Positions 27,940-28,525 of a DNA stretch of 64,000 nucleotides are shown piece by piece. A program made the translations under genes and the position numbers. This DNA comes from a virus. Positions within the stretch are counted from its first letter, which is position 1. Each line of letters opens with the position of its first letter. The notes beneath the pieces were generated by a model. It saw only the letters and a list, made by a program, of their open reading frames with translations, made no database searches and had not been told where the DNA came from. Location of the stretch: IMG/VR virus record IMGVR_UViG_3300035698_006566; one strand, given 5' to 3'.

Positions 27940-27982
27940 GGGGCGGTAGCTCAGTAGGTAGAGCACTTGGTTATTGACCTAG
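27940..27982 (+). pseudogene. truncated tRNA-like element (acceptor 5' strand, D-arm and anticodon arm; no T-arm or 3' acceptor strand)
   Basis: GGGGCGGTAGCTCAGTAGGTAGAGCACTTGGTTATTGACCTAG; lies immediately upstream of HNH paralog 2. Confidence 0.3.
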
Positions 27983-28010
27983 TACACCAACCCCTGATAT
28001 ACTCTTCATT

Positions 28011-28487
28011 ATGACTAGCAGAAGAACATGGTCCGACCAGAGCTTAGTAGAGGCAGTAGAATCATCTAAAACCGTGGCGTCTATACTTAGAAAGCTGGGG
28101 CTACAAGTAAGACCGGGGAACTATAAAACAGTTCAGAAGAGGATAAAGGTACTGGGCCTAAATACTGCCCATTTTACCGGTAAAGCTCACGGCACACAGA
28201 AAAACAGGGTTCTATCTAATGAGGACATATTCACTCAAGACGCCGACGTAGGAAGAACCACGGTTAGACGGAGGATAGTTAAAGATGAGTTGTTGGGCTA
28301 TACCTGCCAAGTATGTGGATCCCAACCAGAATGGAAAGGGAAAGTTCTTACCTTGGTGTTAGACCACATAAATGGTAAGTGTAATGACCATAGGTTATCT
28401 AATCTAAGATTCCTTTGTCCCAACTGTAACTCTCAGCAAGACACATTCTGTAGGGGTCATAGCTCCAATGGTAGAGCGGAGGCTTGA
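28011..28487 (+). CDS. HNH homing endonuclease (paralog 2)
   Basis: VLTLVLDHINGKCNDHRLSNLRFLCPNCNS; 3' end overlaps tRNA-Phe by about 35 nt. Confidence 0.75.
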   Translation: MTSRRTWSDQSLVEAVESSKTVASILRKLGLQVRPGNYKTVQKRIKVLGLNTAHFTGKAHGTQKNRVLSNEDIFTQDADVGRTTVRRRIVKDELLGYTCQVCGSQPEWKGKVLTLVLDHINGKCNDHRLSNLRFLCPNCNSQQDTFCRGHSSNGRAEA

Positions 28488-28525
28488 AGCGCCTCGCGTT
28501 CCTGGTTCAAATCCAGGTGGCCCCA
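28453..28525 (+). tRNA. tRNA-Phe(GAA)
   Basis: anticodon loop TTGAAGC; T-loop TTCAAAT; discriminator A. Confidence 0.75.

Follow-up and report, generated by a model that had tools for sequence, protein, structure and literature searches.

An HNH endonuclease gene that runs into a tRNA-Phe gene, with the 5' stump of another tRNA gene immediately upstream, is probably a free-standing homing endonuclease cassette lodged in a phage tRNA cluster, its insertion having broken or duplicated a tRNA gene. The gene lies in a stretch of viral DNA 64 000 nucleotides (nt) long (IMG/VR record IMGVR_UViG_3300035698_006566), hereinafter the window, which holds two paralogous genes of this kind, denoted paralog 1 and paralog 2 in the order of their position; the gene with the stump is paralog 2 (Table 1). 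We assign a probability of about 0.65 to this reading. An earlier note, made from the sequence alone, had proposed such an insertion into a tRNA cluster, in the manner of the seg genes of phage T4, and the proposal is now supported by the tRNA-array habitat of the protein family, by the recurrence of tRNA stumps next to its members, and by a presence/absence polymorphism in Pakpunavirus.

The paralog 2 protein scores 22.8 bits with the Pfam HNH model (PF01844, cut-off 21.4) and matches PHROG 10822, ‘HNH endonuclease', with E = 2.8e-45. Residues C99, C102, D118, H119, N131, C136 and C139 are invariant among 19 sequences and form the pattern CxxC...DH...N...CxxC that includes the zinc-finger cysteines. 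By its sequence, the protein belongs to the HNH (His-Me finger) endonucleases, and nuclease activity is predicted; Pfam detects no GIY-YIG domain in it, and a sequence search of PDB with the nuclease domain returned nothing useful. The gene is free-standing, that is, it is located outside any intron, between a tRNA stump and a tRNA, with a promoter-like site abutting its ATG. At its 3' end, the gene covers exactly the first 35 nt of tRNA-Phe (tRNA nt 1-35), as had been noticed previously, and it has no stop codon of its own: the frame is closed by a TGA that coincides with tRNA nt 33-35 (U33-G34-A35), namely, U33 and the two first anticodon bases. The frame ends in ...TFC-R, followed by GHSSNGRAEA and the stop, with the tRNA beginning within the Arg codon. 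The conserved core of the protein (...TFCR) ends at the first base of the tRNA, and tRNA-Phe supplies the last 11 codons along with the stop.

The unit that consists of paralog 2 and tRNA-Phe is enclosed by a perfect 11-nt inverted repeat (28003-28013 and 28552-28562; TCTTCATTATG and CATAATGAAGA). Each arm of this repeat includes the ATG of a plus-strand open reading frame (ORF), the chance expectation for the region being about 0.1 such pairs. The interpretation of the two arms as terminal inverted repeats of the cassette was rejected, the relatives having no consistent counterpart to the pair. A match of 10/11 nt between 27926-27936 and the 3' end of tRNA-Phe is at the chance level for a 900-nt region and was dismissed as well.

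The tRNA fragment upstream of paralog 2 is missed by ARAGORN, which makes no call there. The segment 27940-27995 yields 26.4 bits with the Rfam tRNA model, below the gathering score of 29 (E = 0.004 in a search of 800 nt), and cmscan aligns it as a tRNA with the T arm deleted and an acceptor pairing of 5/7. Because an intact tRNA-Lys(UUU) in IMG/VR begins with the first 27 nt of the fragment, with one N allowed, the acceptor 5' strand and the D arm represent genuine tRNA sequence and not a chance resemblance. The sequence from 27970 on repeats that of 27889-27924, so that the tRNA-derived part stops at about 27969 (nt 30); the apparent 3' strand of the anticodon arm and the CAACCCC that cmscan takes for the acceptor 3' strand both sit in the spacer of a promoter-like repeat. 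The earlier description of an orphan tRNA 5' portion accordingly holds for the acceptor 5' strand, the D arm and the missing T arm, but not for a full anticodon arm, the 3' strand of which is promoter repeat. Judging from these features, the fragment is a pseudogene, the dead stump left from the 5' part of a tRNA gene. Its likely, if not proven, source is a tRNA-Phe gene: four of its seven best matches are tRNA-Phe, which accounts for only 4% of the 541 distinct tRNA 5' halves collected, and the stump can also be described as Phe-, Lys- or Val-like.

The stump is bracketed by two copies of a sigma-70-like site, TTGACC-N18-TATACT (27893-27922 and 27974-28003), which is found nowhere else in the 64 kb, compared with an expectation of 0.06. 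The sequence from 27970 onward, GTTATTGACCTA...TATACTCT, repeats GTTCTTGACCTA...TATACTCT of 27889-27924, and the duplicated site can be written as GTTNTTGACCTA-N14-16-TATACTCT, with the copies 81 nt apart and with unrelated spacers. A general sigma-70 scan of the 5-25 kb region detected no enrichment of promoter-like sites, so the paired site appears to be local rather than a genome-wide consensus. The -10 element of the downstream copy (site B) ends 7 nt upstream of the paralog 2 ATG, and no Shine-Dalgarno sequence precedes this gene, whereas most of the other genes in the window are preceded by GGAG-type ribosome-binding sites. The combination of a -10 element abutting the ATG with the lack of a Shine-Dalgarno sequence points to a leaderless HNH mRNA.

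Table 1. Features of the two HNH loci in the window
Feature	Position	Strand	Remarks
HNH endonuclease gene, paralog 1	10234..10704	+	156 amino acids; Pfam HNH, PHROG 10822
tRNA-Leu(UAG)	10695..10768	+	ARAGORN, Rfam
Promoter-like site A, GTTCTTGACC-N18-TATACTCT	27889..27924	+	directly past the stop of the vault-protein-like gene; overlaps a strong hairpin
Perfect hairpin	27900..27931	+	after gene 25192-27888; terminator-like, no U run; -27.4 kcal/mol, z = -4.4
Orphan tRNA 5' fragment	27940..27969	+	nt 1 to ~30: acceptor 5' strand, whole D arm, start of anticodon stem
Promoter-like site B, GTTATTGACC-N18-(TG)ATATACTCT	27970..28005	+	candidate promoter of a leaderless HNH mRNA
HNH endonuclease gene, paralog 2	28011..28487	+	158 amino acids; Pfam HNH, PHROG 10822
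Complete tRNA-Phe(GAA)	28453..28525	+	ARAGORN, Rfam 57.3 bits

Paralog 1 (Pfam HNH, 26.1 bits with the same cut-off of 21.4; PHROG 10822, E = 2.2e-44) shares 33% identity with paralog 2 over the full length and overlaps tRNA-Leu by 10 nt, with tRNA nt 8-10 (U8-A9-G10) as its TAG stop. The observations that the two HNH genes are paralogous, that each ends in the 5' part of a downstream tRNA and that the TAG stop of paralog 1 is inside the anticodon-TAG tRNA are all borne out. The view that the two genes are arranged in the same way is correct insofar as paralog 1 also runs into the downstream tRNA, but a tRNA stump upstream of paralog 1 was looked for and none was found. The start codon of paralog 1 is TTG or GTG (10234 is a TTG), located inside the upstream ORF, and about 12-18 N-terminal positions of the family are missing. 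The GC content of paralog 1 (46.6%) is close to the genome value, whereas that of paralog 2 is 43%, with a third-position GC (GC3) of 0.435, against 49% GC for the window and a GC3 of 0.50-0.60 for the neighbouring genes. Paralog 1 looks older and possibly decaying, and paralog 2 looks like the more recent arrival of the two copies.

The search with the window protein yields 478 relatives at E ≤ 0.001, and same-strand tRNAs are present within 2.5-4 kb in about 21 of the 23 IMG/VR loci found first, in most of 80 additional ones and in the loci L043-L048 and L129-L131 (L-numbers denote loci of relatives). The family almost always, indeed almost exclusively, resides in same-strand tRNA arrays of large phages. 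At 29 of the 91 distinct loci, the ORF stops between -100 and +12 nt from the 5' end of a same-strand tRNA. A recurrent class shows an overlap of exactly 10 nt, with U8-A9-G10 used as the TAG stop, as in paralog 1 of the window. According to GenBank records, orf168 of Pseudomonas phage PPSC2 overlaps tRNA-Leu(UAG) by 10 nt, again as in paralog 1, and gp26 of Gordonia phage Norvs overlaps tRNA-Asn by 10 nt; the HNH gene of Citrobacter phage Maleficent (gp101) stops 1 nt before tRNA-Leu, and the genes of the T4-like phages BP32 and ACG-C40 stop 6 nt before tRNA-Leu. The C-terminal tails of several homologues are translated tRNA, for example, ...GQIAQLVER and ...GSSVGRAEG. The members from PPSC2, Norvs, Pakpunavirus LCK69 and Maleficent are 34-41% identical to the window protein (same family, E about 1e-45); in PHROG 10822, they are annotated simply as ‘hypothetical' or ‘HNH endonuclease', and a literature search found no characterization of any of them. 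A candidate rule, whereby the 5' end of the downstream tRNA would be duplicated in the flank of each tightly abutted member, was rejected: only four loci (L006, L129, L074 and L097) beat the null expectation, so that such a duplicate is not a general feature, and L012 shares only an 8-nt acceptor strand with its downstream tRNA.

Most of the closest relatives of the window protein (43-53% identity) belong to a subgroup that abuts tRNA-Phe and includes seven distinct loci, namely, the window along with L005, L006, L024, L129, L130 and L131. The ORF runs into tRNA-Phe in 7/7 of these loci and stops at the anticodon-loop TGA in four (window, L006, L129 and L131). Upstream tRNA 5' stumps are present in 4/7 (window, L006, L129 and L130). 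The L006 stump (3799-3835) spans nt 1 to about 35, and its four best matches are all tRNA-Phe, its own one included. The stump of L129 (2467-2481) matches the 5' end of its own downstream tRNA-Phe in 14 of 15 nt and is found 1 nt past the previous tRNA of a tightly packed array, precisely where the next tRNA would be expected to start; the L130 stump (1915-1935) covers nt 1 to about 21. The four stump loci also share the layout of the promoter-like site, with -35 elements TTGACC (window), TTGACA (L006 and L129) and TGGACA (L130), -10 elements TATACT, TATATT, TATTGT and TATAGT (window, L006, L129 and L130, respectively), spacers of 17-18 nt, a gap of 5-7 nt from the end of the -10 element to the ATG, and no Shine-Dalgarno sequence; the stump itself provides the -35 element in L129. 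Relatives carry the fragment and the HNH gene together, contrary to the refuting pattern named in the earlier note, in which the same fragment would lack an adjacent HNH gene. No stump is present in L005 and L131, where the ribosome-binding sites are of the ordinary sort, an apparent ‘stump' in L131 having turned out to be a hairpin and not a tRNA remnant, and L024 has a truncated gene amid tRNA debris. The combination of a stump, an ATG-abutting promoter and an HNH gene fused to tRNA-Phe recurs in unrelated contigs, all of them metagenomic, and a search of the literature did not find this tRNA-Phe layout, with its anticodon-loop stop, described.

In L024, the truncated gene is a C-terminal remnant of the family, 68 amino acids long, that abuts tRNA-Phe, a second, different HNH gene overlaps its downstream tRNA by 10 nt (entry 2714-3355 / 4007-4213), and T-arm-like debris separates the two HNH genes. 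The idea that HNH-linked tRNA-Phe genes evade cleavage through unusual D arms was discarded because such variants are found in 13/17 unlinked as well as in 6/7 linked phage tRNA-Phe genes.

The gain or loss of a family member can be traced in Pakpunavirus by comparing phage LCK69 (L133), in which the gene is present, with JG004 (L137) and Ab08, in which it is absent. The LCK69 protein is 41% identical to the window protein, so that the polymorphism pertains to LCK69 and not to the window phage itself. The LCK69 locus is matched, at 90-100% identity, by 123 Pakpunavirus genomes, of which only about seven span 80% or more of its length, with some 420-480 bp missing from the others. Alignment with JG004 and Ab08 shows that the HNH gene of LCK69, together with its ribosome-binding site, stands in place of a tRNA-Trp(CCA) gene (670-743 in L137; 31 bits with the Rfam tRNA model and no ARAGORN call). 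The replacement extends from 1-2 nt before the 5' end of tRNA-Trp into the acceptor 3' strand, of which the last 9 nt are left (GGCCCGCCA). Most of the sequenced Pakpunavirus members keep tRNA-Trp and have no nuclease gene. The comparison of genomes with and without the HNH gene that the earlier note had called for, run here on this 41%-identical member, shows that genes of the family come and go at tRNA genes, leaving stumps behind. The same comparison for PPSC2 was uninformative, its relatives being too diverged.

The following scenario would fit these findings. The nuclease would cut tRNA-cluster DNA of co-infecting relatives that lack the gene, and repair would copy the cassette in, with homology within tRNA-Phe setting the right-hand joint. 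The left-hand joint would fall inside a resident tRNA gene, most likely tRNA-Phe, the 5' part of which would persist as a dead stump. The cassette would be transcribed from its own promoter to give a leaderless mRNA. The RNase P cut at 28452/28453, which is needed to mature tRNA-Phe, would take off the last 11 codons and the stop, so that processed transcripts would be non-stop mRNAs and the expression of the nuclease would be low.

Several observations weigh against homing endonuclease insertion. A search for a relative of the window phage without the HNH gene found none, so that homing at this site can only be inferred. No cultured phage is close to the window at the DNA level, the search of a phage database giving only tRNA-sized matches, and the same HNH protein is encoded by just one public contig, which agrees with the window at 100% identity across 6.5 kb. 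Two other routes to relatives of the window phage failed too: the relatives of the vault-protein-like neighbour (25192-27888) have at most 55% identity and no synteny, and exact-pattern scans for the 27940 fragment and for the 3' half of tRNA-Phe returned nothing. Three of the seven tRNA-Phe-abutting loci either have no stump (L005 and L131) or are degenerate (L024). The stumps end at different positions (tRNA nt ~15, 21, 30 and 31-35), and there is, therefore, no single defined insertion point. The single best match of the window stump is a tRNA-Lys, and the stump is 72% identical to its own tRNA-Phe over 25 nt. The two identical promoter-like sites around the stump are not explained by a simple insertion, and the promoter, the leaderless start and the conflict with RNase P processing are all read from the sequence. 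Finally, at position 140, the last metal ligand of the HNH motif, paralog 2 has Asn (CPNCNSQ), as does most of the family, and paralog 1 has His.

A more elaborate form of the insertion scenario, to which we are inclined to give limited credence, posits an HNH lineage specialized on tRNA-Phe genes that enters them without destroying their function. The cassette would bring its own tRNA-Phe, or at least the 5' half of it, fused in frame to the nuclease ORF, which would thereby obtain its stop from the anticodon-loop UGA; the resident 5' half, displaced upstream, could serve as a platform for the promoter of the leaderless mRNA and, when the cassette homes again, as the left-hand homology arm; and tRNA maturation by RNase P could set the nuclease dosage. 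The recurring tRNA-Phe layout speaks for this form. Such an element, if real, would be the tRNA counterpart of mobile endonuclease ORFs known from fungal mitochondria, which bring along a substitute for the gene end that they displace (Allomyces atp6; Glomus atp6, atp9, cox2 and nad3; PMC3630166). In both cases, the element would bring the displaced part and leave the native part dead. The parallel would be one of resemblance only: the fungal ORFs, which are organellar, duplicate the 3' (C-terminal) ends of protein genes and belong to other nuclease families, whereas here a phage tRNA gene would have its 5' half duplicated.

The stump could alternatively have originated by tandem amplification of the [tRNA-Phe + HNH] unit, through microhomology that the tRNA 5' end shares with the end of the nuclease gene, with a subsequent collapse of the array that would leave a truncated upstream tRNA-Phe and an HNH ORF fused to the next tRNA-Phe. 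There is a precedent in the SegB/tRNA-Tyr repeats of phage T6, in which a C-terminally trimmed nuclease gene is joined to the 5' end of a tRNA (PMC13096335); furthermore, in L007 and L048, a complete tRNA-Phe precedes the HNH gene by 53-60 nt, and the variable stump ends and the local duplication of the promoter in the window would also fit. We nevertheless consider this origin unlikely, given that the L129 stump, at the next-tRNA position of its packed array, looks like an interrupted resident gene, that the window has no second HNH remnant downstream of tRNA-Phe, and that the window stump and the intact tRNA-Phe are merely 72% alike.

Domestication of the HNH protein for a tRNA-linked job, such as anti-defence amplification of tRNA genes, with the stump being incidental array decay, appears improbable. 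Phages have been shown to benefit from SegB through the amplification of tRNA genes (PMC13096335), and tRNA debris and orphan 5' fragments do occur away from HNH genes (L017, L114, L046 and L014). Among near-identical Pakpunavirus genomes, however, only about 7/123 carry the gene, its GC content in the window is low compared with the host genome, one genome holds two divergent copies, and truncated copies exist elsewhere (L024). Patchy presence, low GC, and divergent and truncated copies are typical of selfish elements.

The odds are still lower for a functional, T-armless tRNA-like RNA acting as a processing signal, a decoy or a regulator of the HNH transcript. The cmscan alignment of 27940-27995 is a cloverleaf without the T arm, and the 57-mer taken alone adopts the same fold at its energy minimum; the D arm conforms perfectly to the canonical form, and several lineages retain stumps with such D arms. 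This fold, however, is no better than those of shuffled sequences (z = -0.62) and does not survive in an 84-nt context (z = +0.39), the Rfam score is under the gathering threshold, the 3' third of the ‘structure' is the promoter repeat, related stumps vary in the position of the cut and have no 3' part in common, and the anticodon would be AUU with a mismatch in the stem. The functional RNA was rejected on the fold statistics, and neither these nor the Rfam search place the fragment within a longer structured RNA.

Least credible is the origin of the fragment as the 5' exon of an intron-containing or split tRNA, with the HNH gene as an intron ORF or remnant, which the earlier note had allowed for: intervening sequences occur in tRNA genes of related phages (L005 and L075, see below) and, as mentioned in PMC3984707, group I introns are known in anticodon loops of bacterial tRNAs, but a search of 27800-28600 with Rfam yields no intron family at E ≤ 10, the 64-kb window contains no T-loop-like motif with a subsequent acceptor strand that is CCGCCCC-like and would complement GGGGCGG, and the ORF is preceded by its own promoter and followed by a complete, independent tRNA-Phe.

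The window derives from a large tailed phage, as indicated by the genes for the large terminase subunit (PHROG 675, E = 2e-61), a tail-sheath-like protein and a major head protein. ARAGORN identifies 17 tRNA genes, all on the plus strand and interspersed with ORFs between 6.7 and 29.1 kb; one of these, tRNA-Ser(UGA) at 22229-22314, falls under the gathering score of the Rfam tRNA model, which leaves 16 genes by Rfam. The plus-strand gene at 25192-27888 encodes an 898-amino-acid protein with major-vault-protein shoulder and repeat domains and a Band 7/SPFH-like stretch (MVP_shoulder, E = 1.4e-23, Pfam), the relatives of which, at 34-55% identity, come from IMG/VR and metagenome contigs. Another plus-strand gene (58665-59789) of this tRNA-rich phage encodes a 374-amino-acid nucleotidyltransferase (PHROG 388, E = 1e-39), possibly a CCA-adding enzyme.

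Stumps occur generally in the tRNA arrays of these phages. Orphan tRNA 5' fragments are located away from HNH genes in L017 (4790 and 5086), L114 (2257 and 3412), L046 (1623) and L014 (5384), each followed by a short, locus-conserved motif (such as TTTTCGTTnTACTATTTTAG in L114) and then by a complete tRNA. Interrupted tRNA genes, all missed by ARAGORN, are found as well: in L005 (5523-5700), an AT-rich insert of about 115 nt with a hairpin parts the perfectly complementary acceptor strands of a tRNA gene; in L075 (~3770-3880), a tRNA-Asn(GUU)-like gene has its anticodon loop interrupted by an insert of about 30 nt; and in L069 (5201) and L071 (5290), an insert of about 100 nt comes after a complete anticodon arm. 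The tRNA array of L006 contains a match to bacterial class A RNase P RNA (7453-7661; 46 bits with a gathering threshold of 100, E = 4e-11), directly upstream of two tRNA-Met genes.

The closest known counterpart of the window element is SegB, a free-standing GIY-YIG homing endonuclease in the tRNA cluster of phage T4 (PMC2330249; PMC13096335). In both cases, a free-standing nuclease gene lies among same-strand phage tRNAs and stops at the 5' end of the next tRNA; SegB targets tRNA-gene DNA, and its mRNA is proposed to be cut by RNase P processing. The segB gene, the stop of which abuts tRNA-Arg, is the precedent for both tRNA-targeted homing and control by RNase P processing (PMC2330249), and a statistical association of a homing endonuclease with tRNAs across phages has been reported (PMC13096335). 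By Pfam, the window protein has the HNH rather than the GIY-YIG fold, so that the element works like SegB without being a member of that group. It differs from SegB also in that the latter cleaves at the T-psi-C motif, and descriptions of segB mention neither a tRNA stump upstream nor a promoter abutting the ATG. By type and setting, the element can be likened to F-TflI as well as F-TflII and F-TflIV, HNH endonucleases in the tRNA gene region of phage T5 (Akulenko et al. 2004, as cited in PMC2330249). Related genes of T4-like phages carry the GenBank label ‘similar to T5 H-N-H endonuclease TflIV', but these ‘F-TflIV'-labelled genes match the window protein over residues 85-155 only, at about 41% identity, and have another domain order. 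Nuclease genes in phage tRNA clusters, the targeting of tRNA genes and a stop codon overlapping the next tRNA are, thus, already known from SegB and the T5 F-Tfl enzymes.

For the window itself, the finding is an ordinary kind of selfish element with a tidy, recurring footprint. More generally, a large and mostly metagenomic HNH family joins SegB and the T5 F-Tfl enzymes as selfish colonizers of phage tRNA clusters, with the footprints displayed: a stop borrowed from the next tRNA, fusions of a stump with a promoter and the outright replacement of a tRNA gene. These footprints matter for genome annotation, given that gene callers run such ORFs into tRNAs whereas tRNA finders overlook the stumps. 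The family helps explain the rapid turnover of phage tRNA repertoires and points to nucleases that have conserved tRNA-gene sequences as their natural targets.

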